Shown one piece after another: positions 38,585 through 60,016 of a stretch of DNA of 64,000 nt (positions are counted from its first letter, which is position 1; each line of letters opens with the position of its first letter). The stretch is from a virus, in IMG/VR virus record IMGVR_UViG_3300047471_000729, positions 1 through 64,000 of that record; one strand, 5' to 3'. The notes beneath the pieces are model-generated. The model ran no database searches. It was given only the letters and a program-made list of their open reading frames with translations, and was not told the origin of the DNA. The position numbers and the translations under genes are program-made.

Positions 38585-41264
38585 TGATAAAAATTCTCCA
38601 ACCGAACAAGACGATCTTGTTCCTGTTCCATATGCAGGTGTAGTTGGGACTGATTTTCTAACGTTTGCTGTTGGGATTGGGGCCAATGTTGAAGCCCAGT
38701 CTGATTACTTAGCTGACCCTCAGCGTCCATCAGGAAACCTTCCTGGTATTGCGCGGTCAAATTTCAATAACAAGGCAATAAGGCAAGGTACCTTTGTTGC
38801 TCATAGCCTTTGTCTCTGGGTCAGTCAGCAGATACAGGCATACATCCCTGACGACGGAGATGACATTCACTGGATTGCCGAGTTTAGTCAGGCTCTCGCT
38901 GACTTTATCATGATCACTATTCCGCCACCGCCTAATCTTGGTGCATATTTGCCACTAGCCGGTGGCACAATGACTGGTAATATTTCCTTTGTAGCAGGTA
39001 TTAGCACGATTCTGGCTAATAACACTTGGTACTATGGTAAGGATACTACTGGTCAGGCTCGTGGTCTTATCGTTAGGGGTGCTGATGATAACGTATTCAT
39101 CAATGATGGTTCCGCAACTTACGTTCATATTAACGGAACACCACTTCTCAATAACAACTTTATCTACTCCGGCAGAGACACTTTAGGGAACACTCAGAGG
39201 GTTATTGGCTTCCTGAGCGATAACGCTGTGCATGTTGGTGGTTCAGGTAATATCTGGCTGGATAGCATTGGTGGTTCAGTATACGCTGCAGGTAATATCG
39301 CTATTCCGAATAACAGCTACTACTACTGTCAAGATACAGCGGCAAACGAGAGAGCGGTACTGGGAATTAACACAGCCAATTCCCTAATGATTGGTAGTGG
39401 TGGTGTAGGTTCAACCGACATCTATGCGGGTGGGGCTAATACTATCAATCTTCACAATAATACACTTGCCCTTGGTCAGCTTCAGACCAATGGTTATTTC
39501 TACTGTCAGGGTGGTGAGCGAATCTATATCCCTGGTGGTAATGATCCGCTGCAAATCTACGCGGACAATGGGTACTACGCGCGCCTGCATTATGTGGTCG
39601 GTGGTACCCGAGACTGGAGCGAGGGCTGCCTTAGCAATGGTCACTGGGCTGTTGCTGATGAGAGTGCACACGTGGTCCGGATCGAGATTGATTTCAATGG
39701 GCAGTTCCACTGCTACAACAACGTGCAGATTGATGGTAGTTTAAATATTAGTGGTAGTGTGGGTGTTGGTAATCTTACAGTATACGGTGCTGCGCAAGTC
39801 AACGGTGGTATGAATGTCTATGGTGGGTTGACCGTTCAGACTGGCAACTTTAACGTAAATGGTGCCTCAGGATTTGGTGGTGGTGTGACCATGTACAATG
39901 GTCTCAACGTCGCCGGTGGTGGTACCACAATGGGATCACTCACTTGTGGCAACTTTGGAGCGGGAGGCTCAGGTCAGATCAATGGTGGTCTGACAGTCTA
40001 TAATGGTCTCAATGTTGCGAGTGGGAATGCTAGTGTTGCGGGTACGTTGACAGTTGGTGGTGTCACTTCGATTGGTTCCACCCAAGTTAATGGTAACCTC
40101 ACCGTAACCAACACTCTTCAAGTCAACAACTGGGCCAGCATCTATAATGGCCTGACTATTCAGAGTGGCAACTTTGGTTGTGCTGGATCGGGGCAGGTCA
40201 ATGGTGGTCTGACAGTCTATAACGGAATCAATATTGCCTCTGGTGGTGGTTATATTGCCGGTAGTTGGACCAGTGGTGGAAGTATGACTTGTGGGAATTT
40301 CTTGCAGGTCAATGGTGGGGCACAGATCAACGGTGGTCTCACCCTATACAATAGTATCTATGTTGTATCGGGTGGTGGCACGATTAACAGTTACTTGAAT
40401 GTCAATGGTACCACCGGTATTAGTGGCTACTGTCAAATCAATGGTTCGGCAGTCATCTATAATGGTTTGACTGTTGCTAGTGGTGATTGCAATGTTTCTG
40501 GTAATGTGAGTGGTGCTTCCTTCTCAACTGGTGGTAATGCTTATTTTGGTGGTCTTATCCACGTCGGTCAGATTCAGGTAGGTGGTCTGGCACCTATGTA
40601 TGATAATGGTGGTAATGTCTTAAATATCAGTAGTTCTGTCCAGATCCATGGCTCGCTTACAACAGACTACTTCAGAAGCTTGGGTGCGGTCGATTGTGAT
40701 CACGTCTACTCCTACAATTACTTACACGCTGACAACTATCTAGATGTTGATGGCTGGGCATATCTGCGTAGCGGTATACAAATATGGGGCGACGTATTCC
40801 AATATGCTGCTAATTTCCAAACTTATGGTCACATCTTCCCCGTTCCTAACGGGTCGCAGGAATGCGGAACGTGTCAGCACCAATGGCGTAACGTGTTTTC
40901 GTACAACTTTGCGACTGAAAGCGACCCCGATAAGAAACGCGATATTGCACCAATTCCGGAAGTTTGCCTTAGCCTGGTTAACGCCATCAAGCCGTCGACT
41001 TTCAAATGGCGAAACGCGGGTGAATTTGACGATCATGGTCGGCCAATGACTGAAGACCACCCATATGCAAATACCCATTGGGGGTTTATGCAGCCCGATG
41101 TCATGAGCGTTATGAACGACCGTGAGCGGAAACTGCCAGTTTTTGGTGGTGCCTACGAAGACATGGGAGTAAAGTTACTTCAGTACAATGAGCTTGTCGC
41201 GGTGTTGTGGCAGGCGGTGAGAGAACTTTCGTCTGAAGTTGAAGCCTTGAAGAGGAGAGCATAA
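38578..41264 (+). CDS. Tail fibre protein with C-terminal S74-like chaperone
   Basis: DFLTFAVGIGANV...GIARSNFNNKAIRQ baseplate-attachment N-terminus, GGLTVYNG beta repeats, and ESDPDKKRDI...HWGFMQ...YNELVAVLWQAVREL. ATG 38578 overlaps the previous stop. Confidence 0.8.
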
Positions 41265-41605
41265 TGCCTACTATTGCACAAATTCCAGATGCTCATGCAC
41301 TGCACACCCAATTGGATGCAGTCAACAAAGCGGTTGCTTTGCTTCAATCTGGAGCACCGGTTACCAATTTGACGGTGACCCCTGCTACTGATTTAACAAT
41401 TCCCACGATGGCTCCTCCTCTACCTGCAGCAGGAGCTATGGAAGCACCGCCAGTAGTGACACCTACGGTATATCAGCCACCAGTGACTATCATTCTTGAT
41501 CCACCAATCACTGATGCTGCGACGATTGATACCTTGATTACTGCGCTTCAGGTGCGCGCGGGCGAGATCACGCAAACTCTAATCGACAATGGGTATTCGT
41601 CCTAG
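41264..41605 (+). CDS. Fibre-associated protein (paralog of the 33602 N-terminal domain)
   Basis: Follows the fibre gene with TAATG coupling. Similar to 33602..34183. Confidence 0.55.
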   Translation: MPTIAQIPDAHALHTQLDAVNKAVALLQSGAPVTNLTVTPATDLTIPTMAPPLPAAGAMEAPPVVTPTVYQPPVTIILDPPITDAATIDTLITALQVRAGEITQTLIDNGYSS

Positions 41606-41705
41606 CTGCACCAGCCCAGAGATCGGCCTCCAGGCGATTCTAGCGGTATGTAATCGACTTCGTGGCACCATATAGCGCAGGCTTCCTTCCCTGCAATGTA
41701 CACGC

Positions 41706-41735
41706 AAAAAAAGGCCCCTACGAAAGGGGCCTTTT
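41706..41735. terminator. Bidirectional intrinsic terminator between convergent operons
   Basis: AAAAAAA-GGCCCCT-acgaa-AGGGGCC-TTTT. Confidence 0.85.
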
Positions 41736-41741
41736 CAGCGT

Positions 41742-42800
41742 CTACTCAATCGTGGGTGCTACGAATGCTAAGGTCCCCTTCTCGGTGCGGACGATCCGGT
41801 AGGTGGTGGTTGCCTCAATCCGTCGAACCTCTGCAAGTGCAGTCCGCATTTCCTCTTCTGGACTGATCTTGAATTCTCCGGCGGTGGCGGTGTGGACTCC
41901 GGAAACAATGTGAGGTCCGGAACGAATTATTTCTGGTAATGCCACTTTTTCCTCCTCTAATGGTTTGACAATTGCAGGTGTTGTGGGAACCTCAGTCACA
42001 CCAACCCAAACTTGGGGTTGAACGACCCGAGGTGGTACTGGAGTCAGACGATTGGCTGGGGTATTACCGTGAGGTTGGACCTGATCCAGCAAAAGCCTGA
42101 TCACAATGGTGTTGTCAACTACTAGAAACTCTGCAGGGCTTGGGCCGCATATTGGAAGGTCACCGCGAAGTTTCTCTCCTGTAGTACCGTAATAAGATAA
42201 GGTACGATCACTTAGGATCCTAGGTGAGGCTGCCTTGTGCAGAGTCCATTGGTCAGGACCATCACGTTCAGCCCGATACCCATTCCCTATCCCGACGTTA
42301 CCCAAGTTACGAGGAACGAGAAACTTTATTCGATCCTCATAGATAGCAACCCGTCCTATTACCGGATCGGGTGCTGGCTTTGTTTTAGGTACAAAGACCT
42401 TATTAGGTTCAACTGCTGGCATTTCGGGCTCCTTTACTTCTGGAGCTGTAGGTTCAGAGGCATATTCGATCCTGGGTATGTCCGGAATATTGTATTTCTC
42501 CGGTTTAGGTTCATATGGTGTAGGCAGTGGACCCAACATCTCTTCAAGTTTCTGCCTTGGCTTGGGTTCAGGTTTGGGCGGAGGCGGACCAAGTAACTGG
42601 ACAATGTCACGCTTCTTAATGTCAAGGTCCTTAGCACCACCGGACACTGAGTTGTGTAAGGTAATATCCCGCACCTTCCCATTATACAAGAACCTTCCGC
42701 GCGGGTGCCTGCTTTTTCGCAAGATGTCTACATGTTTGATCCCATAAGTCTCGCGCAGGAAGTCCTTGATTGCACTGTAATAGTTTGATGTTTGACTCAT
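41742..42800 (-). CDS. Hypothetical Pro-rich protein; N-terminus weakly HicA-like
   Basis: GAGGAG RBS and its own promoter/operator at 42860-42890. Confidence 0.55.
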   Translation of the reverse strand: MSQTSNYYSAIKDFLRETYGIKHVDILRKSRHPRGRFLYNGKVRDITLHNSVSGGAKDLDIKKRDIVQLLGPPPPKPEPKPRQKLEEMLGPLPTPYEPKPEKYNIPDIPRIEYASEPTAPEVKEPEMPAVEPNKVFVPKTKPAPDPVIGRVAIYEDRIKFLVPRNLGNVGIGNGYRAERDGPDQWTLHKAASPRILSDRTLSYYGTTGEKLRGDLPICGPSPAEFLVVDNTIVIRLLLDQVQPHGNTPANRLTPVPPRVVQPQVWVGVTEVPTTPAIVKPLEEEKVALPEIIRSGPHIVSGVHTATAGEFKISPEEEMRTALAEVRRIEATTTYRIVRTEKGTLAFVAPTIE

Positions 42801-42890
42801 ATCTACTCCTCATTTTGTCCCCCTATGCTCCCTTTTACGTTTTCCTTAAGTGATCTAGATCATATTGTATTTTGCGATACATTGCAAGCT

Positions 42891-42937
42891 AAAAAAGCAA
42901 AAAGAGGAGGCTGCGCCCGATCAAAACACAGCCTCCT
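42891..42937 (-). terminator. Intrinsic terminator after the PEP-CTERM genes
   Basis: AGGAGGCTG...CAGCCTCCT stem followed by T-tracts on the - strand. Confidence 0.65.
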
Positions 42938-42955
42938 TAAAGTTTTTTGTGTAGG

Positions 42956-43759
42956 TTAGGCTACTGCACCACCACCAAAGTTGCCTTTGCGGCGACGATA
43001 CCAACCGACCAGACCAAATCCGAGAATTGCTGAACCAAAGATGGTCAGCGAACCCGGCTCCGGGACTGCTGCTGCTGGCGCGGCTTCGACAAAGAACGAG
43101 TCTGGACCATCGTTCAACCCTGACATTCTCGCGAGGAACAACACCGTGTCGCCCACATGAATGTCGTTGTTGGTCAGGCTGAAACCAGAGATCGTGTAAT
43201 CGGGAAAGCCCGTGCCATTGTTGACATCCGGCACGTTACCAGTAGTACCGCCCGTGAAGCTGTCGAGTACAGTGTGTGTCGTCAGGTTCAGGAACCAGAA
43301 GCTATTCAGCGTCTCAGCGACGTTGGTTGAGTTGATATCGACGCCAATGCTGAACCTCAGATTGTTGGCAGCATCACCATTGGCAAGCAAGAATGCCAGG
43401 AGAGGACTACCTGAACCAACTTGATAACCAGTGGCGAACGTGTCATCGGCGAGCGTGTTGCGCCCACCGTTGCCTTGGTCCGAGAACGCTGAGATTGCGC
43501 TTAGATTACCTGCGTTGCTGTAATCGTTATATCCGAAATTCGCAGGCTGCTGTGGCTGGTTTTCCCCGCAGATCACGCATGGCGCGTTCTGCGGTTGATT
43601 ACCGCCAGGAACGAAATTACCAAGCGATAGGCTGCCTGAGTTAGTGGTGTTCCATTGCACCCCACCCAAGGTGACAAACGTGTCAGCCTTAGCCGGTGTC
43701 ATTGAAAGCAGAGCGCCGCAAGCGACACCTGCCATCAAAAGTTTCATTACAGTTTTCAA
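42956..43759 (-). CDS. PEP-CTERM sorting-domain protein 2
   Basis: Signal peptide (MKLLMAGVACGALLSMTPAKA) and C-terminal VPEPGSLTIFGSAILGFGLVGWYRRRK. Probable TTG start at 43759. Confidence 0.9.
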   Translation of the reverse strand: MKTVMKLLMAGVACGALLSMTPAKADTFVTLGGVQWNTTNSGSLSLGNFVPGGNQPQNAPCVICGENQPQQPANFGYNDYSNAGNLSAISAFSDQGNGGRNTLADDTFATGYQVGSGSPLLAFLLANGDAANNLRFSIGVDINSTNVAETLNSFWFLNLTTHTVLDSFTGGTTGNVPDVNNGTGFPDYTISGFSLTNNDIHVGDTVLFLARMSGLNDGPDSFFVEAAPAAAVPEPGSLTIFGSAILGFGLVGWYRRRKGNFGGGAVA

Positions 43760-43812
43760 CGTACTAACCTTTCTATAGTAATTGGTGGGGCCCCAAGACC
43801 CCACCAAACGTG

Positions 43813-44562
43813 CTAGGCAGAGGCGAGATTGCCCTTGCCGTTCTTCCGGCGACGCAGCTTACCCACGACACCCATACCAATAAGCGAGGTGCCAAAGATA
43901 ATCAGCGAAGCAGGTTCGGGCACCGCTTGCGTAGTGACGATTGATTGGGTACGCCCAACCAACGACGCACCAGCGATCAGCGTACCGGTGGTCCCTTCCG
44001 ACAGGGAGTAGGGACCGGTGCTGTCGAACACACCTGAAAAGTTCTGCGAGAACGAGTCAGGATCGACCACGGCAGCGTGCGTCAGGGTTGCAAGCAAAGT
44101 CCCCGGCAGATCAGTCGGGGTGTCCGCGCCTTGCGTGTTCGCCGCATCACCAAAGAACGTCTCAGTGACGCTGGAGCCGATACCGGATTGGAACGTCCCG
44201 GCGCCACTAGCGGTGAACGCCGTGACCGGACCCAAGAAGCTGGTCCCACTCACGGCAAGCTGAATCGAAACCGTACCCGTGTTATTGTTGATCACCTGAA
44301 ACGAGGAGGTGTTCAACGAGTTTGACGGTCCGATTACCTGAGTCTGTGCTGATCCGAGGAACTGCACACCGGCGATCGTCTGATTGGCAATTTGCAACTG
44401 ACCAACTGCGTTGTTGGTGTCGCAAGCTGCCTGATCTGCGCAGACGAATGAAGTACCGTTGATGTCTGCGGCGATCTGTAGTGTCGCGTTAGCCGAACCT
44501 GCCAACGCCAACCCACCCGCAAGGATGGTGCTGGCTAAGGCTAGGTTTTTGAGCTTACTCAT
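43813..44562 (-). CDS. PEP-CTERM sorting-domain protein 1
   Basis: Signal peptide (MSKLKNLALASTILAGGLALAGSANA), Ser/Thr-rich body and VPEPASLIIFGTSLIGMGVVGKLRRRK. GAGGT RBS. Confidence 0.92.
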   Translation of the reverse strand: MSKLKNLALASTILAGGLALAGSANATLQIAADINGTSFVCADQAACDTNNAVGQLQIANQTIAGVQFLGSAQTQVIGPSNSLNTSSFQVINNNTGTVSIQLAVSGTSFLGPVTAFTASGAGTFQSGIGSSVTETFFGDAANTQGADTPTDLPGTLLATLTHAAVVDPDSFSQNFSGVFDSTGPYSLSEGTTGTLIAGASLVGRTQSIVTTQAVPEPASLIIFGTSLIGMGVVGKLRRRKNGKGNLASA

Positions 44563-44598
44563 ATTTACCTCACTTTGCTAGTCTAGCTAGCAGAGCAT

Positions 44599-44614
44599 TG
44601 CAATAGCTATGCCA
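44599..44614 (-). promoter_or_regulatory. Sigma54 (-24/-12) promoter
   Basis: The - strand reads TGGCATAGCTATTGCA (GG-N10-GC), about 37 nt upstream of the PEP-CTERM start codon. Confidence 0.75.
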
Positions 44615-44631
44615 CTAGTGTCTTTGTTTGT

Positions 44632-44644
44632 TTTCAAGAGGTTA
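44632..44644 (+). promoter_or_regulatory. IHF-like site
   Basis: TTTCAAGAGGTTA versus the WATCAANNNNTTR consensus (1 mismatch), with a T-rich 5' flank. Lies between the sigma54 site and the enhancer. Confidence 0.55.
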
Positions 44645-44661
44645 GGTGTTCGAAGGGGTGC

Positions 44662-44708
44662 AAAGTGTAAAGTTTAGGCGACACTTTCATTGTCGGATTT
44701 TACACTTT
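44662..44708. promoter_or_regulatory. Palindromic enhancer-like site for a sigma54 activator
   Basis: AAAGTGTAAA...CGACA-N7-TGTCG...TTTACACTTT inverted repeat containing TGT-N12-ACA. Confidence 0.55.
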
Positions 44709-44883
44709 TTAGTGGGTTCTTTGGGCAATTATCAAAGTGCCATCGAGTTAGTACTCCTCGATTGTTCTTATGCCCACAGTGAGGGCATTCACCCATGCCC
44801 TTTGATGTAAAGAACCTCTCGTTAAAACTAATCGATCGTTCAGGTCGTTTATGTAGTGATCTAATCTCAGACGATTTTGTCAT
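44674..44883 (-). CDS. Small Zn-ribbon protein similar to the C-terminus of the 5658..6290 endonuclease
   Basis: ECPHCGHKNNRGVLTRWHFDNCPKNP versus [26 protein letters not shown]. Confidence 0.5.
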   Translation of the reverse strand: MTKSSEIRSLHKRPERSISFNERFFTSKGMGECPHCGHKNNRGVLTRWHFDNCPKNPLKSVKSDNESVA

Positions 44884-45335
44884 TGTACTTGATCCTTTTC
44901 ACGAAGCCACGTAGTAATATGTCGCTTGATGATCTTGGGATTGATATTTGGTGGTTCATCATGTGCCAAGATGAACTTGCCAACCAGCTCAACAGGGTCC
45001 GAGTCCACTGGAGGTAATCCTGTTTCAAGCCAATTCTTGACCAGTGGGAGTATATCAGGTGCAGTTATGATTAGTTCTTTGAATACATCACTAGCTGGGA
45101 TCGAGTTGGATGTGGAGGATCCAACCCTTAAAGCCCCATTGTCACCGATATAGTAGTTCTTCTCCCCATCTTTTTGATAGACTGCATAACGTTGTGATCT
45201 GGTTTGCTGTTTTGTATAACCCATCACTTCAAAGCCAGCGATATACTTTTCACGAAGTGTAGTGGGATTACGATGATTAACATGGCGACGTCGGACCGTA
45301 CGACGCCTAGGAGTAGTAAATTGTAAAGGCATCAT
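44880..45335 (-). CDS. Hypothetical protein
   Basis: ORF coupled by ATGA overlaps to its neighbours. Confidence 0.5.
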   Translation of the reverse strand: MMPLQFTTPRRRTVRRRHVNHRNPTTLREKYIAGFEVMGYTKQQTRSQRYAVYQKDGEKNYYIGDNGALRVGSSTSNSIPASDVFKELIITAPDILPLVKNWLETGLPPVDSDPVELVGKFILAHDEPPNINPKIIKRHITTWLREKDQVQ

Positions 45336-45532
45336 GCTTCTCCATCTTTGAATAACCAGGACCTAACTGCGCAATCCTTGGCCTCCAATAGTTTACGAAG
45401 GCAAGTGGTCTTCTCAGGGTTGTTTGGGTATGTGTCAATACCCGCTGCAAACTCCTGAAAGCTTTTGGATACAGGTTGCAGGTGCTCAGGCAGATGTTTG
45501 TACTCGAAAAACTGCATTAGGTAGTGAGGCAT
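45332..45532 (-). CDS. Small helical-hairpin phage protein
   Basis: FFEYKHLPEHLQPVSK...PEKTTCLRKLLEAKDCAVR. AGGAGG RBS before ATG 45532. Confidence 0.65.
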   Translation of the reverse strand: MPHYLMQFFEYKHLPEHLQPVSKSFQEFAAGIDTYPNNPEKTTCLRKLLEAKDCAVRSWLFKDGEA

Positions 45533-45560
45533 TGCGACCTCCTGCAAGTATCAACACAGC

Positions 45561-45596
45561 ATTTAGGCCGGATTGGAAACACCATCCGGCCTAAAT
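45561..45596. terminator. Hairpin downstream of the XRE gene
   Basis: ATTTAGGCCGGAT-N10-ATCCGGCCTAAAT (13-bp stem). Confidence 0.55.
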
Positions 45597-45597
45597 C

Positions 45598-45921
45598 TTA
45601 GGCTACTTGTTCTAGGTCCCCTCGAACATAACGAGGGACTGGAACAGGGCTTCCCCTAGTAAATTTTGCCGTCGCAAGACGCTCAAATTTTCGTAGAAAG
45701 GTCAGGTGTTGCTCGCTTTCCTGGGTTAGGTACCGAACAATCGGCTGACGCATTCTAGCCGGTAGCTTACCGATCCAATAGGTGTCGAAGGTTCGTTTGG
45801 AATTCTCTAGGCGGTTGTAAGTCCATAGGGAGATTCCAAGTGAATCAGCAACCTCTGTTTGCGTCAGTTCAGCGTTCATGCGCGCCTCGCGCAGTACACG
45901 ACCAATGTTTCTGTCCATCAT
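45598..45921 (-). CDS. XRE-family helix-turn-helix transcriptional regulator
   Basis: IGRVLREARMNAELTQTEVADSLGISLWTYNRLENSKR. Confidence 0.88.
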   Translation of the reverse strand: MMDRNIGRVLREARMNAELTQTEVADSLGISLWTYNRLENSKRTFDTYWIGKLPARMRQPIVRYLTQESEQHLTFLRKFERLATAKFTRGSPVPVPRYVRGDLEQVA

Positions 45922-46145
45922 TGCACCAATCCTGTGAGGCTCACTTGCCTACGTGTTATAAATAAGCATTTTTGCGTCGATTTGCAAGAACAGAAAGTGC
46001 GGCAGACGATATCGTTTCCGTGTAACGAACAACCCCTGGTTCCTACACTGGGGCTGGAAGGAGGACGGACGATATCTTGTAGGACAAGCTGGCATTACTA
46101 CCAGGCTTCATCCGCTCACCCGATGGAGATCCTCCTTCACCGTAA

Positions 46146-46463
46146 CTAATGGAGCATGTGACTGGTTGGGCTGAGAGGACGCACCGCATGACCCAAACGT
46201 TTCTTTTGCACGTTCTTTGGTACCAACTTTAGTCCGTTAGTCCGTTCAACGATGTCCCTGGGCTCATTGGCCGGTACGACTCGATAGACCATATGGGCGC
46301 CCGCTGCCCGAAGACGTCCGCGCTCGTAGTGACGCTGTGACACCTGGTCCCAGTTCTTTTCGTACTCGGGCGGGTAAGGGCGCTGGGCCAGATAGTCCTG
46401 CCATCCACGTGCGCTGTACCCGTTGGGCCTAACCTTTGGTAGGTGATTCGCATTCGAGCTCAT
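46146..46463 (-). CDS. Hypothetical protein
   Basis: AAGGAG RBS before ATG 46463 (MSSNANH), promoter at 46490-46518. The longer ORF-track start runs through that promoter. Confidence 0.55.
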   Translation of the reverse strand: MSSNANHLPKVRPNGYSARGWQDYLAQRPYPPEYEKNWDQVSQRHYERGRLRAAGAHMVYRVVPANEPRDIVERTNGLKLVPKNVQKKRLGHAVRPLSPTSHMLH

Positions 46464-46720
46464 ATGGGTTCTCCTTACTGACCCCTTAAATATAAGCGGT
46501 TTGCGATGAATTGCAAGCTTTAATTTGATCTCAGAGTGGGCAGCTTTAGCGGCATCGGCTTCAACGGGTTTCCCCTCCATCTATCCGCTTGACGACGTGC
46601 TGCCCGACGCCGGGAATTAACCCATGCCTAGGGCTTTTTTGCGGGTAGCCGTCCCGCTTCTCATCATGAGGGTTGCATCCTCACTAGCCGGGAGCTACCC
46701 CGGCTCGTCGGTAAGTCCAT

Positions 46721-47221
46721 TTAGGTGGCCATCAGTTCACGAGCAGCAGGACCGTCCTTCCGCCGCCTGCGCCGGCGCTTCAGAAAGGACGTCTGATCCT
46801 TCTCGTTCCAGGACCGAATGAGTGCCATGTCCAGATAGTCCAGATCGAGACCAAAGTCCTCATAGCCCTGTGCGATCACGTCCAGATAGTGCTGCCCAGG
46901 AGGCTGAACACCACCGTGGCACATCTGATACACCAGGACATCGGCAACCTTACCGGTCTTGACCATCTTGACCTTGATGTAGATCTTCTCATAGAGACCT
47001 CCACCAACGCCCTCATACATGTCAAGCTCTTTTTCACACTCCCTGGTGATCTTCCAAAGACCACCGGGGCAGCTTTCCTTGCGGTCGTACTCGATATCGG
47101 CTACACCGCGAAACACCAGGCGTGAGTGGGTGAGATGAAACGAGCCCAGCTTCTTGGCCTTGGGGCATCTGCGCTTCATCGCCTCGACACAGAGATTGCT
47201 TCCATAGGCGAAATACAACAT
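46721..47221 (-). CDS. Gamma-glutamylcyclotransferase (AIG2-like)
   Basis: MLYFAYGSNL...RCP...GGLW...LDMYEG. AAGGAG RBS before ATG 47221. Confidence 0.88.
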   Translation of the reverse strand: MLYFAYGSNLCVEAMKRRCPKAKKLGSFHLTHSRLVFRGVADIEYDRKESCPGGLWKITRECEKELDMYEGVGGGLYEKIYIKVKMVKTGKVADVLVYQMCHGGVQPPGQHYLDVIAQGYEDFGLDLDYLDMALIRSWNEKDQTSFLKRRRRRRKDGPAARELMAT

Positions 47222-47286
47222 GTCGGAATCTCCTTGCTGACTCCCTATATATATAAGCGCTTTGCGATGAATTGCAAGCCCCCGCA

Positions 47287-47568
47287 TCAAAAGATTTCGT
47301 CCTTGAGTCTGGGGTTGAGGCGATCCACACCGGGACCCTTGTGCTTGATCCACGGACCCGGCGGGTCGCCCTGACCGTCCCAAACTAACGTAGCAAGGAA
47401 CGCCTCGTGGCGGAGTTCGTAGCAATATCGACTGCTATAACCGGTCTCATCCAGACCTGTGAACAGACCAGTGGTAAAGTTCATATTCATCAGGCCGATC
47501 CACCTGCCGTCCTTGAGCTGTCGAACGTTTGTGTAGCCCTCTGATAGGAGCAGCTCTTCGGTGGTCAT
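47287..47568 (-). CDS. Hypothetical protein
   Basis: FTTGLFTGLDETGYSSRYCY...WDGQGDPPGPWIKHKG. Coupled to the upstream small ORF. Confidence 0.55.
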   Translation of the reverse strand: MTTEELLLSEGYTNVRQLKDGRWIGLMNMNFTTGLFTGLDETGYSSRYCYELRHEAFLATLVWDGQGDPPGPWIKHKGPGVDRLNPRLKDEIF

Positions 47569-47697
47569 GATCGATCCTGAATGATGTGAATGACGATGGG
47601 TGCACGCGGCATTGAGCCGAGTTGGTACCCCAATAGTCCACACGCTGCGATGAATGTGATTAGTATCACCGCAAGAATAACTTCAGACCAGTGCATG

Positions 47698-48006
47698 TTA
47701 ATCCATTCGACAAACTTCGAACTCACCACCGGGCTGCACAATGGCAACCCATGAATGATTGTAGAAGCGGATCAACTCATTCCGAAGAATGGTCTCGGCT
47801 AGCAGTTTAACCGGTGGGTCGCCTGGGTACTGCAGGTCACCATTGGCCAGCATGGTGAACCCCTGGAAAGGGACCCACCCGCCACCGTGACCATAGGACC
47901 GATCGAACTGCTCCCGCGCGGGCATAGGATTGCCCTCGTTGAGAAACAGTGGGATGTATCCGAGCATCTCGATCGTTGCCTGTGGGTGCTTCATCGTCCA
48001 GATCAT
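47698..48006 (-). CDS. Hypothetical protein
   Basis: GGAG RBS; sits in a chain of early genes. Confidence 0.55.
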   Translation of the reverse strand: MIWTMKHPQATIEMLGYIPLFLNEGNPMPAREQFDRSYGHGGGWVPFQGFTMLANGDLQYPGDPPVKLLAETILRNELIRFYNHSWVAIVQPGGEFEVCRMD

Positions 48007-48384
48007 CGGTTTCTCCAGTTATTAGATCCGTGCGCCGTTGCCGTGTGGTGTTGCTGCGCAGTATTTCGCCACCGTGTAAGGTGCGCCTTGGCGCACGGCT
48101 TGGCGTCGTGCATGTGGGTCATTGGGTCATCCTGGGCCATTGCTTGACATCCGTTCTATCAGTTCATCGGCGCAGTCGAGCCAATCGGTATGCATCTCGG
48201 GGTAAGCTCCCTCTTCACCCACCTGATCCCATGGACGGCTCGTCCGCATCTCGAACATGTCGTACAAGTGTCGGGCGAGGCGCTCGCGGAACTGGCTGTT
48301 CGACAGGGCCCGATGCCAGCCTGGATTGCGGTCGAGCCATTGTTTGATGGTGGGCTGCATTGTGATTACTCCTTGTAAGTCCAT

Positions 48385-48621
48385 TCAGTGCGTGGTTTCG
48401 GTTTCGTCAACCAGCAGGCCGATCCGAACGAGGTCGGCAACGAAATCTTCTGCGCTGCCGCACCGCACCCGCTTGCCCGTTTGTAGCAAGACTCTGCCTT
48501 GGGTCTCTTTCATAAACTTGCGATCGTTATCTGATTGCGTGAAAGAAATCTTGTGCAGTTCTTTCACAATACCCTCTGGGGTCGTTGCCCCCAGAGGTTG
48601 TCCATCATTGGTCCGGTACAT
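48385..48621 (-). CDS. Small protein adjacent to the amidoligase
   Basis: GAGAGGAG RBS; directly follows the amidoligase gene. Confidence 0.55.
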   Translation of the reverse strand: MYRTNDGQPLGATTPEGIVKELHKISFTQSDNDRKFMKETQGRVLLQTGKRVRCGSAEDFVADLVRIGLLVDETETTH

Positions 48622-48627
48622 AGCTGC

Positions 48628-49842
48628 TTATCTCCTCTCGGTGATGACACGATTGAGTTGAGCTACCCGCGCCTGCAGGAAAGCCAACTCGTTCGCAGGG
48701 ATATTAACCGTATTTGCAAAATTCTGCAAGGAATCATCTCCCTCGGGCTGCAAACCTTTCACGGCCGCGTCGTAGATGCGCAAGCAAACCCGTACCCAAT
48801 GCTCTGCTTTGTCGGCATCGACCGTGCCCTGGTGCTGCCTGAACTCGACCGTTGTGTGTCGCCAGAAGGCTGCGAGATTAACCTTGAGGAACCGCTCAAG
48901 TCTATTCTCCATTTGTGCGGGATAGCTTGGCATGATGTTTAACAAGCTACCCGCATATGCCAGCGCCAGCTCGTCTATATTGGTGGCGGCTGCAATTAGA
49001 AGCGACCTGGCACCATCTTCCACCCGCGCTTTGGTCGAGCGGCAATAACTATTGTTATTTGCACGGCGCGTCTGGGAAGTGATAGAGTCAATTGCGCCTT
49101 CATAGTGACCATAAAGCTTGATCAGATTGCGGAAGAAGTTAACATCTCGGCCTTCTGCGCCGATATGCACGTGAAAGCCTGCCTGGCGGCGAACTGTGCA
49201 GCCCTTTTCTTCCAGAAACTTCATCATCTTACGCATCTGCTGGATGCCCTCGCTGCCTTGCAGCACTGGGGACACCACTTCAATGCCATTTCTACGATCA
49301 CCAAGCGAACCGTCCTGCGTGATCTTCCACACATTAGGCCGGACGGGATCACGATAATAACCAATCACTGCTTGAAAGCCTGCGCTGATCATGTCAGCCA
49401 TAAGGCTGCGTTGACCCATATTCCGGGGCATGTAGCATTCGATCTCAACGCCGAATGTGTAATCGGTGAGGTCGGCGTCAAGCGCGGTGCTGAGTGCCAC
49501 AATTGCTGTGCTGGTGTGAGGCGCCCGTGGACCGCGAGGCGTCACTGTGCCTTCGGTCAACAGCACTTCCGGGAGCTGCTCCAGCAGGCTGGGCATCGGT
49601 AAGCGTTCAATCAGCCAGGTCCGATTTGTGTTTATCACCCGCTGGCGCAAGGCCAGCAAGCGAACGGCCCGCCACCGAACTGAGGTCCAATTGTTGGTCC
49701 ACTGATTGGTGTTCCACTGGGACACGCCACTCAGATGATGGCGTACCTGTGTTGCGATGGTCCGATACTCATTGTGGATCTGCTCGTCCCACCAGGCCGG
49801 ACCTTGGCCATTGATTGTGGGGGGTAGATTAATGCGAGGCAT
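48628..49842 (-). CDS. Putative amidoligase (COOH-NH2 ligase type 2)
   Basis: TFGVEIE, WKITQDGSL, IEVVSPVL, GFHVHIG and TVEFRQHQGT motifs. Confidence 0.88.
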   Translation of the reverse strand: MPRINLPPTINGQGPAWWDEQIHNEYRTIATQVRHHLSGVSQWNTNQWTNNWTSVRWRAVRLLALRQRVINTNRTWLIERLPMPSLLEQLPEVLLTEGTVTPRGPRAPHTSTAIVALSTALDADLTDYTFGVEIECYMPRNMGQRSLMADMISAGFQAVIGYYRDPVRPNVWKITQDGSLGDRRNGIEVVSPVLQGSEGIQQMRKMMKFLEEKGCTVRRQAGFHVHIGAEGRDVNFFRNLIKLYGHYEGAIDSITSQTRRANNNSYCRSTKARVEDGARSLLIAAATNIDELALAYAGSLLNIMPSYPAQMENRLERFLKVNLAAFWRHTTVEFRQHQGTVDADKAEHWVRVCLRIYDAAVKGLQPEGDDSLQNFANTVNIPANELAFLQARVAQLNRVITERR

Positions 49843-50338
49843 GAGCTTGTCTCCGTTCTGACAAAGCTATATATAAGCTTTTTGCAGCACATTGCAAGCT
49901 ATCATGCAAAATGATTTGAATTCTTTTATTGAGCGTTGTCAAAGGCTTACGATGGGTTTATGGACGAATTTCGGGCGACTGTACGGCACCGGAAGTGGGG
50001 GTTTCGGACCCTTCGAGTACATAGCAGTGGGATACGAATACCGCGCTCCACGAGCCTTGAGGCCGGCCTTTGTGAAACGACCCTTGAATGGACTTACGCG
50101 GCCGAAAACGTAACGAATCACTAGGACGGTGAGGCCGATCACGTTCAGACCGACCCACACCGCCAGAACTATTCCAGCGGTTAGCACCCCTAACCCCCCA
50201 CCCTTGAATTGAACCCAAAAAGTAGCAGCGTATTGCAATGCGGTGCAATAGCTAATTTCGCAGGTCAGGTATGCAAGTTTGCATATTGCAATGCGGTGCA
50301 ATATCGCTTACATTTCCTGAGTCAGATGGAGAATTTTT

Positions 50339-50536
50339 ATGAAGCTCTGGATTTTGACTTTCGCCCTTGACGACGACCACTTCGTTGGGACTTTCTCCAC
50401 CGAGGAGAAGGCGCAGGCAGCATCAGCTGCCTTTTCCAAGGATGCCGAGCAGGCAACGATGTGGATATCGATTGTCCCGGTCGAACTTGATAACGACGAT
50501 CTGGTCGATATTGAATTGTGCGGTACGGGCGACTAG
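50339..50536 (+). CDS. Hypothetical protein
   Basis: GGAG RBS downstream of a TTGCAA-N17-TACATT promoter. Confidence 0.55.
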   Translation: MKLWILTFALDDDHFVGTFSTEEKAQAASAAFSKDAEQATMWISIVPVELDNDDLVDIELCGTGD

Positions 50537-50780
50537 ACATGAGTTACCTCGTTGGACGACTGATCAACGAATACCAGATTCACGCATTCTACTACTGCCA
50601 GACCCTGGAAGAAGCAAAGTCTGTCTGTGCAGTTGAATGGGTTGGTCAACACAATATCTGGAGCGGCAAGGATTATGATGACGATACGATATACGTCATC
50701 ATAAAGCGGACTCCAAATTAAATCTCGTCTGAATGCTTATTTCCTTTTGCAGTTTTGTGCAAAGCCTATAAGCTTGCAAT

Positions 50781-51107
50781 ATGCCCGTCAGCAAGCAAAC
50801 ACCGCTAACAGCTCAAGCGACTCACGAGCATAATTTTGAGCAGTCTTACGCTGACTGGGAAGCCTCGGTGTTTGATAGGGCTGCTTACTTTGCAGTGATC
50901 GAGCTGCGCTATGGTGGGCGTGGCCAGCAAAGATACACAAAGTGGACGGTTCTCCCCTGGGCACTGCGCTATGCGCGGGAACATGTGGAGACCGGTCCCT
51001 GTGTGTATGCCGTAGTAGAGTCTGGAAGGTTTACAGTTCTCGACCGCGAAAAGTGGGATGATTGGGAAACACGTTGGCGTCGGTCTAGAGAACACATCAA
51101 AGCCTGA
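50781..51107 (+). CDS. Hypothetical protein, possibly leaderless
   Basis: The ATG lies about 6 nt after a -10-like TAAGCT. Confidence 0.5.
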   Translation: MPVSKQTPLTAQATHEHNFEQSYADWEASVFDRAAYFAVIELRYGGRGQQRYTKWTVLPWALRYAREHVETGPCVYAVVESGRFTVLDREKWDDWETRWRRSREHIKA

Positions 51108-51111
51108 CTGA

Positions 51112-52446
51112 ATGGAGTTATTCCCTTACCAGCGGAAGGGGGTAACTTTTCTAGAACGCAGAAAAGGTCGCGCTCTAATTGCCGACGAGATGGGACTGGG
51201 AAAGACAGTCCAAGTATTAGGTTGGTTGCAGCATCGACGGTCGTATAGACCTACAATCATAATCTGTCCTACGTCTGTCAGATTACACTGGCAATCACTT
51301 ATTCGCTTAATGTTGCACGAAGAGTGTTATCTGCCTTATTCTCAAACGGCTGCGGGTATAGGGTATGAAAATCAATCTTTCATTATCATTCATTACAGTA
51401 TTGTACCTTTCTGGGTTGACTGGTTAAGAGCTCTAAAACCAAAGGTTATCGTGGTGGATGAAGCTCAGGCTATAAAGACCAACAATACAAAACGCACCAA
51501 CGCTGTAAAGGCTTTGGCTCGTAAAGTCCCGCATGTTATTGGCTTGACTGGTACTCCGATCGTTAATCGACCAAGCGAAGCATTCAACATTTTGCAGATA
51601 ATTGATCGCAAAACCTTTCCCAATCAACGAAAGTATGCTGAGCGATATTGTGATCGTAAGCTGACATACTGGGGTTGGGATGAGTCTGGTGCAATCAACA
51701 TTCCTGAACTCCATGAGCTCTTATCTTCGGTTATGTTGCGCAGGCGCAAGGTGGATGTATTAAAGAGTCTACCACCAAAGATACGCAGCTTCGTCCCACT
51801 TGAGTTGACCAATCGTAAGGAATACACCGCAGCTGAAAAGGACTTTATTGGCTATGTAAGGGAAACAGAGGGTAAGGAGGCAGCGAAAAAAGCAAACAAG
51901 GCTGCGGCACTTACAAAGGTTACTTTTCTGCGTTTGTTAGCAGCTCGAGGTAAACTAGAACAGGCAATTGATTGGATTGCTAATACAATAGAGGAACAGA
52001 AGCTAGTTGTTTTTGCAGTCCATCGTGAAATTCTTGACCCTGTTTTTAACGCATTTCGTAAAGTTGCTGTACGAGTTGATGGTAGTGTAAATGAAGCCGA
52101 GCGTGGTCGTGCTATTGATCGGTTTCAGAAGGATCCAAAGTGCAGGTTATTCGTTGGACAAACACAAGCAGCAGGTACCGGAATAACACTGACCGCAGCG
52201 AGTAATGTTGCATTTCTGGAACTGCCGTGGACTCCGGGGGACTTGTTGCAATGTGAAGATAGGTGTCATAGGATTGGTCAGGTCAATTCAGTGACAATAC
52301 ATTATCTTCTAGCAGCAAACACAATAGATGAAAAGATGGCGGATCTGATAGACAGGAAGCGTAGAATTTTAGACTCCGTGCATGATGGGGAAACCTTCCC
52401 ATCAATCTTAGCTGAGTTGTTAAACCATTACAATAAACGGGGGTAA
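51112..52446 (+). CDS. SNF2-family (HARP-like) helicase
   Basis: LIADEMGLGKT, VVDEAQ, LTGTPIVNRP, GTGITLTAAS and QCEDRCHRIGQ motifs. Confidence 0.92.
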   Translation: MELFPYQRKGVTFLERRKGRALIADEMGLGKTVQVLGWLQHRRSYRPTIIICPTSVRLHWQSLIRLMLHEECYLPYSQTAAGIGYENQSFIIIHYSIVPFWVDWLRALKPKVIVVDEAQAIKTNNTKRTNAVKALARKVPHVIGLTGTPIVNRPSEAFNILQIIDRKTFPNQRKYAERYCDRKLTYWGWDESGAINIPELHELLSSVMLRRRKVDVLKSLPPKIRSFVPLELTNRKEYTAAEKDFIGYVRETEGKEAAKKANKAAALTKVTFLRLLAARGKLEQAIDWIANTIEEQKLVVFAVHREILDPVFNAFRKVAVRVDGSVNEAERGRAIDRFQKDPKCRLFVGQTQAAGTGITLTAASNVAFLELPWTPGDLLQCEDRCHRIGQVNSVTIHYLLAANTIDEKMADLIDRKRRILDSVHDGETFPSILAELLNHYNKRG

Positions 52447-52448
52447 CT

Positions 52449-52916
52449 ATGGAAGTAGCGATACCAACTAAGCTAGCGATTAAGTTCGCATACAGCACAG
52501 GTATTGAGGTCGGATACCTGTTTTCCGAAGCGGTGGAAGCCTATTGGAAGGCCACAATTGATCCCAAATATGACCCGCGCAAAGCATCTTTCAAGACTTA
52601 CGCCACCACCTGTGTCTATCGTCATCTCTGCAGTGTGATTGCGGAGTACAAGCGTAAGTATCCTGACTATGATCAGATTAGCGAAGACATGGTTAGTCAG
52701 GAACCTAGCCCCGAGGATGTTTACTATTTCAAGGAGATAGTGAGTCAGTTACCGGATGATGGTAAGTATGTGATCCATTTGGTGTTGGAAGTGCTGGATG
52801 GTATTCCTGCTTATCGGGCCCGTGCGGCAATTCGTAAAATGCTAAAGGGACAGTGGGCCTCTGTTCGGATTGACACAGCATTTCACTCTGTTAGCCTGAT
52901 GCTGAAAGAGGCGTAG
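52449..52916 (+). CDS. Sigma-factor-like protein (sigma70 region 2)
   Basis: LFSEAVEAYWKA...YDPRKASFKTYATTCVYRHL...SPEDVY. Confidence 0.65.
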   Translation: MEVAIPTKLAIKFAYSTGIEVGYLFSEAVEAYWKATIDPKYDPRKASFKTYATTCVYRHLCSVIAEYKRKYPDYDQISEDMVSQEPSPEDVYYFKEIVSQLPDDGKYVIHLVLEVLDGIPAYRARAAIRKMLKGQWASVRIDTAFHSVSLMLKEA

Positions 52917-53843
52917 TTGGACATCCTTGAAATCTACCGTAGGCATGGTGTGCACTATCAGACGGAAGGTGATAGGCATACCACGCGCGGGTGGGTCAAT
53001 TGTCGCTGCCCGTTCTGCACGGGCAGCCCCGGCCTGCATTTAGGCTTTAACTTACAACACAAGTTCTTTAGATGCTGGCGCTGCGGTTGGCACAGCACCG
53101 TTGATACATTGATTGAATTATGCCGCGTCTCATCCGAACAAGCTCGTCAACTGTACTATGAGCTTGGTGCCTCCGGTGGACCTTTTGTCCCGCGAGTGGA
53201 CAAGACATCAAGGCTAATCAATCTATCTCGGTACAAGCGGCCTACAGATGTTGGCCCCTTACGTCCTTCTCACAAGCGATACTTGGCTGGTAGAGGCTTT
53301 GATCCTGAGAAGATTGAAGCAGAATGGCATGTATGCAGCACGGGACCTTTAGCCTATCTTGACAATATCGACTACCGGTACAGGCTGTTCATTCCTATCG
53401 TGTGGAATGATAGAGAAGTGTCCTTTCAATGCAGAGATGTCACAGGCAAGTCAGACATCAAGTACCGAGCTTGCCCACTGGATCGCGAGGCTATGCACCA
53501 CAAGAATATCTTGTATGGCAGGCCGGATTGCTGGGGTTCCAGGGTCGGTATAGCGGTGGAGGGTGTCACGGATGTCTGGAGGCTGGGTGCTCAAGCCTTT
53601 GCCGTGCTTGGCATTGAGTACAAAATAGAGCAAGTGGTCCTAATCAAGAAGTTTTTTGATCGGATTGCCATTGTATTTGATGGGGATAGGCAAGCGCAGA
53701 GGCAGGCAAGAGAGCTGGGCTCTAGGCTGGATGCTATGGGAGTCGACACCTTTATTTACAAGCTTGATAAAGGCGTCGATCCCGGTAGCATGTCAGATGA
53801 TGATGCGAAGCATCTAGTTAAGACGCTTCAAACTCCGCGGTAA
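52917..53843 (+). CDS. DNA primase (Zn-binding + TOPRIM)
   Basis: CPFC...CWRCG Zn finger, VEGVTD, FDGD and DPG motifs. TTG start with GAGG RBS. Confidence 0.88.
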   Translation: MDILEIYRRHGVHYQTEGDRHTTRGWVNCRCPFCTGSPGLHLGFNLQHKFFRCWRCGWHSTVDTLIELCRVSSEQARQLYYELGASGGPFVPRVDKTSRLINLSRYKRPTDVGPLRPSHKRYLAGRGFDPEKIEAEWHVCSTGPLAYLDNIDYRYRLFIPIVWNDREVSFQCRDVTGKSDIKYRACPLDREAMHHKNILYGRPDCWGSRVGIAVEGVTDVWRLGAQAFAVLGIEYKIEQVVLIKKFFDRIAIVFDGDRQAQRQARELGSRLDAMGVDTFIYKLDKGVDPGSMSDDDAKHLVKTLQTPR

Positions 53844-53947
53844 GCACCTCTCGAGGCAGGGATGCAAGTCGTGCATCACGCATAAGGTCCAACTATCGTC
53901 GCTGTGAGTTGTATTAATTCACTATACAACGTTTGTTTTGGATCCAT

Positions 53948-55243
53948 TTATGTTACTCTTAAGTTATACTTAAGAAATCTTTTGACCAAAGTTGTTGACT
54001 TTATTCTACGTCGAGTTAATGCAGAAAGCATCATCATAGTTACTCCAACTATCACTATTGAAACTTTGTCGTTCATATCTCCCACAATGAAAATTGGTTG
54101 TAGAATTAATGTCATCAAAACTCCAGTACAAAATGTAACAAGAGAATTCTGACCTAAAAGAATGACTGGCTTGGAAACAGTCCATCTTAAGAATTCACTC
54201 TCTCGACTGACAAAGCTATTAATAACAATCACCACTGCTAGAAAATTAGCTAGTCGGACTGGTGCTAGAAATTCTTTACTTTGAAATAGTCTCCATGGCA
54301 AACCACCAGGAAAGATGAGTTCATTTACCGATGGTATGCTAAAAATTGCGCATCCTATAACAATAGTCCAAGCTCCAATAGTTATCCAATTCCATTTATT
54401 AACTATATAAATTTCTCTGTTCTTAATCGGAATAAACTCTGGAATTAGAATTCTTCTTCTATGAGTTTGAAGATGTCGAATTGATGCACCTATGACAAAT
54501 AGGAATTGCCATGACAAAGGATTTACCCAATGAGCACTGTTAAAATATGGAATATCCCACAATATAATTAAAGTCGAAAAGTAAATTGAAAAGGAAACTA
54601 GTAACGTTACCAACACATTCTTCCTAAGAGCATATAGAATAATCGGAAGAATTGCTAGGAGCATCATATATACTGGCAAAACTCCTAGAAATGGTACCTT
54701 AAACTTAAAAGAAACTAGCGCATCGATAGCTTGCTGAAAGACAGTATCAATTGAGATATAAGGAGATGACTCACCAGAAATTACTACATACAAAAAGTAG
54801 AATAAGAAAATCAGAAAGTTGGCTATGTATAGCTTACCAACTCGTTTGTAAATTTTAGTAGCTGTTGGTCGTATTCCATAGTTATTCAACATACTTCCAT
54901 AGACCAAATAAGAAATGTATCCTGAGATACAAATGAAAACCTCCGATGCATCGAAGAAAGTGAAATAGCGAAGGAGTAGCGGTGATCCATGAACATGATC
55001 ATAAAAGATCAAAATGAGAGCGATTCCTCGAAAGAAATCTACTCTGGGATCACGAGAGCTAAGGTAGTCAGCCGGCATCATTACACCGGTGGTACCGCGC
55101 CGATTCTCTTCAATCGGCAAAGTGTCGATATGACTTCCCTTCTGAAAATCAGCGCGTGGTTTTGGGAGACGGGACAATCTATGCTCCCAACGATACATCA
55201 TTTCGGCGTAATCCATAACAGTTCCTTTCATCTCATAAACCAA
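53948..55243 (-). CDS. opgC: OpgC-like membrane acyl(succinyl)transferase; start uncertain (possibly near 55082)
   Basis: RDPRVDFFRGIALILIFYDH, DASEVFICISG, VLPVY, NPLSWQFLFVIG and LGQNSLVTF motifs. About 10 TM segments; AT-rich. Confidence 0.8.
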   Translation of the reverse strand: MVYEMKGTVMDYAEMMYRWEHRLSRLPKPRADFQKGSHIDTLPIEENRRGTTGVMMPADYLSSRDPRVDFFRGIALILIFYDHVHGSPLLLRYFTFFDASEVFICISGYISYLVYGSMLNNYGIRPTATKIYKRVGKLYIANFLIFLFYFLYVVISGESSPYISIDTVFQQAIDALVSFKFKVPFLGVLPVYMMLLAILPIILYALRKNVLVTLLVSFSIYFSTLIILWDIPYFNSAHWVNPLSWQFLFVIGASIRHLQTHRRRILIPEFIPIKNREIYIVNKWNWITIGAWTIVIGCAIFSIPSVNELIFPGGLPWRLFQSKEFLAPVRLANFLAVVIVINSFVSRESEFLRWTVSKPVILLGQNSLVTFCTGVLMTLILQPIFIVGDMNDKVSIVIVGVTMMMLSALTRRRIKSTTLVKRFLKYNLRVT

Positions 55244-57497: not shown

Positions 57498-57587
57498 AAT
57501 CCTTTCCTTTCAATGTACGTCAGCAGTTAGTATATATATGCTCGCGCAACACATTGCAAGCTATTTTTGCGACGGCTTGCAATTCAT

Positions 57588-58472: not shown

Positions 58473-58485
58473 TGTTCTATCTCAT

Positions 58486-58522
58486 AAAAGAGGAAGGCGG
58501 ACGGCTGTTGCCGCCCGCCCCC
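58486..58522 (-). terminator. Hairpin/terminator after the 58536 gene
   Basis: GGCGGACGGC...GCCGCCCGCC stem followed by a T-rich tract on the - strand. Confidence 0.5.
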
Positions 58523-58535
58523 TTTGATCAGTTTC

Positions 58536-59525: not shown

Positions 59526-59718
59526 TTTTACCCTTTCTTCTGTGCGGACGACAAATTGTCTGTTGCACGCGCTTAATGTAGCGGAGTTCAAATTCGATTG
59601 CAAGATAAAAATTTTGCGTGTACTGCAATTGCAGATTATTGCATAACAGCTATGCAAAAACGCTTCAATCAACGCATTTTCTGCTTGCAATGAATTGCAA
59701 AATATGCTAGGCTCATAA

Positions 59719-59822
59719 TGCAGCAGGTTGCTGCGACCGTGTGCACAACGGGGTTCAATAACAGGGCAATCGCTCTGCCAACTATCTGGGTAGGAATGGC
59801 GAACCAGCAGCGACTTGTTGTA
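59719..59822 (+). ncRNA. Candidate structured RNA or 5' leader (multi-branch)
   Basis: 16-bp closing stem 59719-34/59807-22 plus internal stems. Begins about 6 nt after TTGCAA-N17-TAGGCT. Confidence 0.5.
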
Positions 59823-59845
59823 CTATCTTTGGAAAGGACAGCATC

Positions 59846-60016
59846 GTGGTATCAGCAAAAACATTACAAGAGATTGCAAAGGTCATCTTAAGGCATGTTA
59901 CACCTGAAGTGGCTGATGCGATATGCCAAGACCTGATGAAGGTTCAGGGAAACAAGAGTTATACAGATACAGTTCATCATCTGGGAATTCTGCTTCAAAG
60001 GATCACCCTAATCTAG
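59846..60016 (+). CDS. 56-aa hypothetical protein
   Basis: GGAAAGGA RBS, GTG start, VSAKTLQEIAKVILRHV... Confidence 0.5.
   Translation: MVSAKTLQEIAKVILRHVTPEVADAICQDLMKVQGNKSYTDTVHHLGILLQRITLI

Follow-up and report, generated by a model that had tools for sequence, protein, structure and literature searches.

A tandem PEP-CTERM gene cassette in a soil phage with a predicted sigma54/PrsR control region of bacterial type

We analyzed a two-gene PEP-CTERM cassette carried by an uncultured tailed soil phage, which is represented by the 92,966-bp IMG/VR record IMGVR_UViG_3300047471_000729 (about 98% complete according to CheckV; guanine-cytosine (GC) content 47.2%); the first 64 kb of this record form the window. 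The PEP-CTERM tail is the tag by which bacteria sort proteins into the slime layer, and PEP-CTERM/exosortase systems are widespread among bacteria of soil, sediment and sludge. We consider it probable that the cassette is mobile cargo of soil phages, transcribed by host sigma54 and the response regulator PrsR, and that it encodes glycan-binding surface proteins sorted by the exosortase XrtA of the host. The DNA upstream of the first gene is a complete copy of the bacterial PEP-CTERM on-switch, so the phage probably makes these proteins only while its host is building slime.

The earlier note on this DNA, made from the letters alone, had described two tandem genes, each with a Sec signal peptide and a VPEP-TM-RRRK tail, and both were confirmed as open reading frames (ORFs) on the minus strand (Table 1). 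In the gene 1 protein, the signal peptide (residues 1-26) ends at ANA before T and is followed by a beta-sandwich (28-212) and the tail (43834-43926); in the gene 2 protein, it comprises residues 1-21, ends at AKA before D and precedes another beta-sandwich and the tail (42986-43066). The all-beta domain has about 190 residues in each protein, and the C-terminal ends, VPEPASLIIFGTSLIGMGVVGKLRRRK in gene 1 and VPEPGSLTIFGSAILGFGLVGWYRRRK in gene 2, both contain Pro-Glu-Pro, a hydrophobic helix and a basic cluster. Gene 1 has a ribosome-binding site, GAGG, at 44568-44571, and an alternative TTG start for gene 2, which would lengthen the product to 283 aa, is unlikely. Across 47 gene 1 homologues, E216 and P217 were invariant and P215 nearly so, and Cys41 and Cys47 were invariant as well. 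With the PEP-CTERM model TIGR02595, gene 1 scored 20.2 bits, above the cut-off of 16. A role as virion components was considered for the two proteins and dropped because of the signal peptide and the sorting tail.

Table 1. Coordinates of the two genes and of the elements that accompany them
Feature	Position	Strand	Basis
Enhancer-like inverted repeat AGTGTAAA-N27-TTTACACT enclosing GACA-N7-TGTC	44664..44706	-	sequence
Motif 1, "PEP-CTERM box", predicted PrsR site: GTCGCCTAAACTTTACA	44666..44682	-	motif comparison
IHF-like site TTTCAAGAGGTTA, one mismatch from WATCAANNNNTTR	44632..44644	+	sequence
Sigma54 -24/-12 promoter TGGCATAGCTATTGCA (TGGCAT-N5-TTGCA)	44599..44614	-	promoter scan
Gene 1, PEP-CTERM protein, 249 aa	43813..44562	-	ORF and TIGR02595
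Intergenic GC-rich hairpin, 11 bp, no T-run	43782..43807	-	folding, -22.1 kcal/mol, z = -2.2
Gene 2, PEP-CTERM-type protein, 263 aa from MKLLMAG	42956..43747	-	ORF and visible tail
Intrinsic terminator, 14-bp stem, then CTTTTTGCTTTTTT	42895..42937	-	-22.9 kcal/mol, z = -3.9

Read on the minus strand, the region upstream of gene 1 consists of GTCGCCTAAACTTTACA, 51 nt, TGGCATAGCTATTGCA, 36 nt containing GAGG, and the ATG. In bacterial PEP-CTERM genes, a 17-nt motif ending in TTTACA, attributed to PrsR, is followed after a spacer of 62.8 +/- 10.6 nt (32-92) by a sigma54 motif, and the start codon lies 23-221 nt downstream of this -24(GG)/-12(GC) motif (Haft et al., 2006; PMC1569441). Judged from this published description, the cassette follows the same layout, with its 51-nt spacer and its ATG 36 nt past the promoter. 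The sigma54 site named in the earlier note, with GG at 44613-44612, GC at 44601-44600 and a predicted transcription start near 44588, was the single best -24/-12 match on both strands of the whole 92,966-bp genome and recurs upstream of homologues; the composite of box and sigma54 site occurs once in the 93-kb genome. The TGTAAA...TTTACA inverted repeat seen earlier is likewise real. Its arms are AGTGTAAA at 44706-44699 and TTTACACT at 44671-44664, and the promoter-proximal one is the 3' end of the 17-nt GTCG...TTTACA motif that recurs at other loci. The enhancer region can also be read as two inverted GTCG...TTTACA half-sites, the second of which is made up of the left arm and the inner GACA-N7-TGTC; the same nested inverted architecture is found in L001, the closest phage copy, although the DNA there is not alignable. 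Between box and promoter, the site resembling that of integration host factor (IHF), for which the chance expectation is about 0.07 per 51 nt, deviates from the consensus at one position, and its offset is conserved at other loci. A 69-aa ORF (44674-44883, minus strand) with a CxxC...C zinc-ribbon-like motif reaches into this region, its last codons and stop overlapping the distal enhancer and motif 1.

The control region was not confined to this phage. We compared 19 gene 1 loci, namely this phage, 10 other viral contigs and 8 bacterial genomes. A -24/-12 score of at least 9 was found within 130 nt of the start codon at 11 of the 19 loci, against 1.3% of background windows, and none of 2000 shuffles reached this count (P<=0.0005). 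The full composite was present at 13 of the 19 phage and bacterial loci, with spacers of 41-62 nt, and an IHF-like site lay in the spacer at 7 of 12 family loci, at 6 of them with the same offset and orientation. In addition, four alphaproteobacterial genomes were searched with the pattern GTCG-N5-7-YTTACA-N40-66-GGC-N7-TTGC, the reversed pattern serving as control; they contained 13, 9, 8 and 8 matches (38 together), and the control yielded 0. Of these sites, 30 were fetched; an ORF with a PEP- or PAP-CTERM tail follows in 19 cases, and an IHF-like site is present in 16. Most of the IHF-like sites, at family loci as well as regulon sites, lie 17-20 nt from TGGC in the same orientation. The comparison of the enhancer with bacterial PEP-CTERM upstream motifs, which had been suggested for this cassette, thus bore out the resemblance, since the composite recurs across the alphaproteobacterial PEP-CTERM regulon.

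The bacterial genomes that carry a gene 1 homologue also hold the machinery that such a cassette would need. All five carriers tested (G001-G005) encode exactly one PrsR and one XrtA, plus RpoN, above curated cut-offs. In Aquincola, transcription of pepA depends on RpoN1, and prsK is required for flocs (PMC9850573). The statement that no exosortase or activator is encoded in the window holds for the phage record as a whole, in which no exosortase, sigma54 activator, PrsR, XrtA or RpoN was found. Judged by capsid and sheath, the closest cultured phages are phages of Proteobacteria, with less than 50% identity, and no host can be assigned from them. A cyanobacterial host, which would lack sigma54, was dropped, the homologues and the cis motifs being proteobacterial.

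Two variants of the control region were also observed. Upstream of L003, L004 and L005 (about -165 to -40 from the ATG), GTCGG...TTTAC is kept, but nothing matches GG-N10-GC, and this subclade may have lost its sigma54 element or exchanged it for another. On the minus strand of L026 (582-656) and L030 (4832-4906), a composite resembling the box, GTCAGTGAGATTTACA-58-TGGCAACGTCATCGCT, is directed away from the gene 2 homologue; it apparently lies in coding DNA and is conserved between both contigs.

Because the record is a metagenome assembly and the cassette has a GC content of 55%, against 41-47% in its flanks and 47% in the phage, it might be a prophage flank, or host DNA misjoined to phage sequence. 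The cassette, however, lies in a leftward block with phage genes on both sides, between the structural module, which occupies the plus strand up to 41.6 kb (major head protein, tail sheath, tape measure, baseplate hub and wedge, and tail fibres with S74 chaperone), and the helicase and amidoligase genes beyond 48 kb. The stretch is also held by 23 DNA runs from 2023 soil and rhizosphere metagenomes, which contain 98-100% of its sampled words and may include the source sample or belong to one campaign. Run-specific contigs of 32 kb and 26 kb (runs X1 and X2) each span 40500-47000 unbroken with 0 differences, and run X13 covers the same interval in overlapping pieces. Contigs from three runs therefore cover both cassette junctions, so the cassette is not an assembly chimera, the outcome that the earlier note had named as a possible refutation. 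The homologues in other viral contigs and the clade formed by the viral copies, both described below, argue in the same direction, and a misjoin is hardly credible.

Homologues of the two genes were found in more than 30 viral contigs, some of them with direct terminal repeats; the search with gene 2 gave 19 further viral contigs. No homologue of either gene was found among the INPHARED cultured phage genomes. In other phages the homologues adjoin terminase, primase-helicase or portal genes, and five gene 1 contigs carry tandem PEP-CTERM pairs. Three phage genomes of 36-69 kb with gene 2 homologues (G013, G014 and G015; loci L033, L034 and L035) have direct terminal repeats, so PEP-CTERM cargo occurs in terminally redundant, whole-looking records. 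In a maximum-likelihood tree, the 11 viral gene 1 copies formed one group with support of 99/98, outside which fell the alphaproteobacterial copies and two long-branched betaproteobacterial ones. A gene 1 homologue was present in 1 of 401 sampled alphaproteobacterial genomes, that one being the source of the query itself, and the gene 1 family is rare among cellular genomes. The closest ESM Atlas clusters were 58-82% viral, as counted from few labelled members, and metagenomic relatives numbered more than 256 for gene 1 and more than 500 for gene 2. Since these families occur in over 30 viral contigs and in hundreds of variants from metagenomes, the strategy looks common in rhizosphere and soil viromes.

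The two genes appear to have been brought together from separate sources. Gene 1 is 86% identical at the DNA level to a gene in a viral contig of 59.5% GC (L001-like), whose flanks are unrelated, and for gene 2 the identity is 87%, to genes of other contigs (L020-like) in which another PEP-CTERM gene takes the upstream place. Since the nearest relatives stand in different contexts, the cassette is a mosaic of two sources. Neither a tyrosine integrase nor a convincing serine recombinase nor ParB was found in the phage record, and an integrase was present in 2 of 5 gene 2 contigs and 0 of 5 gene 1 contigs. A 532-aa ORF at 63516-65114 (L039:117-1715), whose matches to DnaB_C, AAA_25 and Resolvase were all sub-threshold, probably encodes a helicase and not a serine integrase.

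Downstream of gene 2, the terminator reported earlier was confirmed as a 14-bp stem with a T-run, and 0 of 200 shuffles folded as well. Between the two genes, the intergenic hairpin could act as a partial terminator or as an element that affects RNA stability, and the corresponding position of L020 and L021 is occupied by another, dissimilar hairpin. The TTGC-N8-GCAA palindrome, described before as the operator of the neighbouring genes, occurs 13 times in the window against 1.5 expected and brackets the cassette at 42872 and 45532. It is absent from 42888 to 45531, and the cassette promoter lacks it, as had been stated. These palindromes (42872-60246) cluster in the non-structural half and look like a repressor/operator network of the phage. 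To judge from the sequence, the cassette has the features of a moron, i.e., promoter, terminator, deviant composition and variable placement. The claim that it is an independently regulated moron stood in part: it has its own terminator, no phage operator, a higher GC content and a variable position, but no terminator shields it from the early genes upstream, so that its regulation may not be independent.

Beta-sandwich models of both proteins were obtained with AlphaFold2, with a predicted local distance difference test (pLDDT) score of 88.5 for gene 1 and 80.7 for gene 2. Residues 25-214 of gene 1 superpose on Bd1399 of Bdellovibrio (Z 9.3), SGBP-B of Bacteroides (8.8) and CBM61 (8.1) over 119-145 residues with 5-11% identity, where the best chance Z among unrelated beta-sandwiches is typically 7-8; many other carbohydrate-binding modules rank after these three. 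For gene 2, no Foldseek match was found at E <= 0.001, and the highest VIA Z was 6.8. The modelled domain of gene 1 resembles carbohydrate-binding modules, which suggests glycan binding. Given that the mature domains are beta-sandwiches and that gene 1 shows this likeness, the proteins probably bind glycans of the host surface or matrix.

The cassette would be read by host RNA polymerase with sigma54 from the -24/-12 promoter (44614-44599), whose firing would require PrsR, in the form phosphorylated by PrsK, to occupy the GTCG...TTTACA box some 50 nt upstream, and an IHF-type bend at 44632-44644 would bring PrsR to the closed complex. Gene 1 and gene 2 would be co-transcribed up to the terminator (42937-42905), and the hairpin between them may lower gene 2 expression. 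Both proteins would then be exported through Sec and retained by their C-terminal helix, and the XrtA of the host would process them at the PEP motif, so that they end in or on the exopolysaccharide matrix or the outer surface. There, the mature domains could bind surface or matrix glycans, which would enable the phage to modify the surface of a slime-producing host, for example by masking receptors against other phages or by changing aggregation. As no integrase was found, expression may occur in the productive infection of slime-forming cells, not in a lysogen.

Several observations weigh against this reading. First, no terminator-like site was found on the minus strand from 45335 to 44562, and the upstream early ORFs lie tightly packed on the same strand; read-through into the cassette is therefore possible and may add to or replace sigma54 control. 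In about half of the phage gene 1 homologues, the sigma54 match is weak or absent, several having lost a good -24/-12 match, and the box is missing upstream of gene 2 homologues in 17 other viral contigs, where the genes usually stand alone. All this would be expected if the box were an inherited relic and the genes were expressed chiefly by transcripts reading through from the phage's early leftward promoter, which is under operator control (operator 45532-45547); expression would then accompany every infection, whatever the state of PrsR. We regard this as unlikely, because all three cis elements are intact with canonical spacing, because the promoter scores level with the bacterial copies and best in the genome, and because a relic decaying in DNA of 47% GC should have drifted; besides, both modes of expression can coexist.

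Second, the evidence for sorting differs between the two genes. The TIGR02595 run proposed for both ORFs bore out gene 1, but gene 2 scored 12.4 bits and failed the cut-off. Neither protein reached the gathering threshold of 20.7 for PF07589 (17.9 for gene 1 and 16.2 for gene 2); this Pfam model recognises only 22% of true PEP-CTERM instances (Haft et al., 2006; PMC1569441). That the host possesses PrsK, PrsR and XrtA is assumed. With these scores and no exosortase in the phage, the VPEP-TM-RRRK tail might make no use of an exosortase and serve as an inner-membrane anchor facing the periplasm, for example in superinfection exclusion or in blocking DNA entry. Such an explanation is quite improbable, since a mere anchor does not need the invariant or near-invariant P215, E216 and P217 of the 47 homologues, and since the gene goes together with the PrsR box and with genomes that encode XrtA.

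Third, the fold matches of gene 1 fall within the range common to any beta-sandwich. The only RNA-library match came from one soil metatranscriptome run with 5% of the words, a single 154-nt contig on 43020-43173 (gene 2) with two differences; it is a relative's sequence or DNA carry-over and too little to claim transcription. Finally, neither this phage nor five relatives has an integrase, which leaves long-term "lysogenic conversion" unsupported, so that the classic picture of a prophage moron may not apply. Host-controlled, XrtA-sorted surface proteins are still, in our judgement, the probable products of the cassette.

If so, phages can make use of a host promoter that depends on an enhancer and is controlled by signals, instead of a constitutive one, and viral expression would thereby be tied to the biofilm state of the host. 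A more far-reaching reading is possible though doubtful, namely that soil phages that appear to be virulent have acquired an enhancer-dependent promoter from their hosts, feed phage-specific glycan-binding proteins into the exosortase pathway and thus re-engineer the matrix of the infected cell, and that the gene 1 family consists mainly of phage-borne exosortase substrates. Re-engineering of this kind, if true, might block rival phages, retain progeny in the floc or out-compete the PEP-CTERM proteins of the host for XrtA. Full-text searches of the literature found no paper on phage-borne PEP-CTERM genes or exosortase substrates. To our knowledge, the function of PEP-CTERM substrates and their sorting route are largely unknown in bacteria. 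As small two-gene units with a defined switch, the phage copies offer a compact handle on PrsR/sigma54 control, on exosortase processing and on how one substrate affects aggregation and phage adsorption.

Further genes of the phage were noted. An OpgC-family acyltransferase (PF10129, E 3e-62) is encoded at 53948-55243 on the minus strand and is likely a second phage gene that modifies the host envelope or periplasmic glucans. A protein with an AIG2-like gamma-glutamyl cyclotransferase domain is found near an amidoligase (phrog_2443), at 46721-47425 and 48628-49842 on the minus strand, and the two may together form a system for peptide ligation or modification. A 1180-aa protein (1522-5064, plus strand), encoded at the start of the structural block, contains a Laminin_G_3 or concanavalin A-like lectin domain (E 1.6e-20). 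No tRNA was found in the 64-kb window.

Among known systems, the predicted jelly-roll or beta-sandwich of gene 1 can be compared with CBM61, CBM4/6, SGBP-B and Bd1399, on which it superposes with Z of 8.1-9.3. It differs from CBM61, SGBP-B and Bd1399 in sequence, the identity being 5-11%, and the Z values of the predicted fold are ones that unrelated beta-sandwiches can reach.

The closest relatives in organization are the cellular PEP-CTERM genes under PrsK/PrsR/sigma54 control (PMC1569441), including pepA of Zoogloea and Aquincola (PMC9850573). The cassette shares with them the signal peptide and the PEP-TM-basic tail, the compact form preceded by a long upstream region of its own, and the 17-nt TTTACA-ending motif followed by a spacer of about 50-60 nt and a -24/-12 promoter; the genomes of the bacterial relatives have PrsR, XrtA and RpoN. 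In contrast to these genes, the cassette sits in a phage without exosortase, PrsK/R or exopolysaccharide genes, and it consists of two genes in tandem. Its N-terminal domains also fall well short of the cut-offs set for named PEP-CTERM subfamilies: with whole-protein hidden Markov models neither protein reached any of them, the best scores being 27.6 against 100 for EDSAP-1 (NF041538), 24.8 against 80 for PepA (NF033554), 20.4 against 85 for THxN (NF038125) and 17.5 against 125 for XDP1 (NF041927). Furthermore, the phage copies form a clade of their own, and the family is rare in cells.

The cassette can equally be set beside phage morons and lysogenic-conversion genes, such as bor and lom of lambda and the O-antigen modifiers of temperate phages (for the concept, PMC3594210). 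Common to both are the unit of promoter, gene and terminator, the foreign base composition and the variable position among phages, and probably also a product acting on the envelope and a dependence on host regulation. Unlike those of morons, the genes described here are found in a phage that, together with five relatives, has no integrase, and their expression may fall in productive infection. Their promoter is enhancer-dependent, combining sigma54 with a two-component regulator in place of sigma70, and their products would need a dedicated sorting enzyme of the host.

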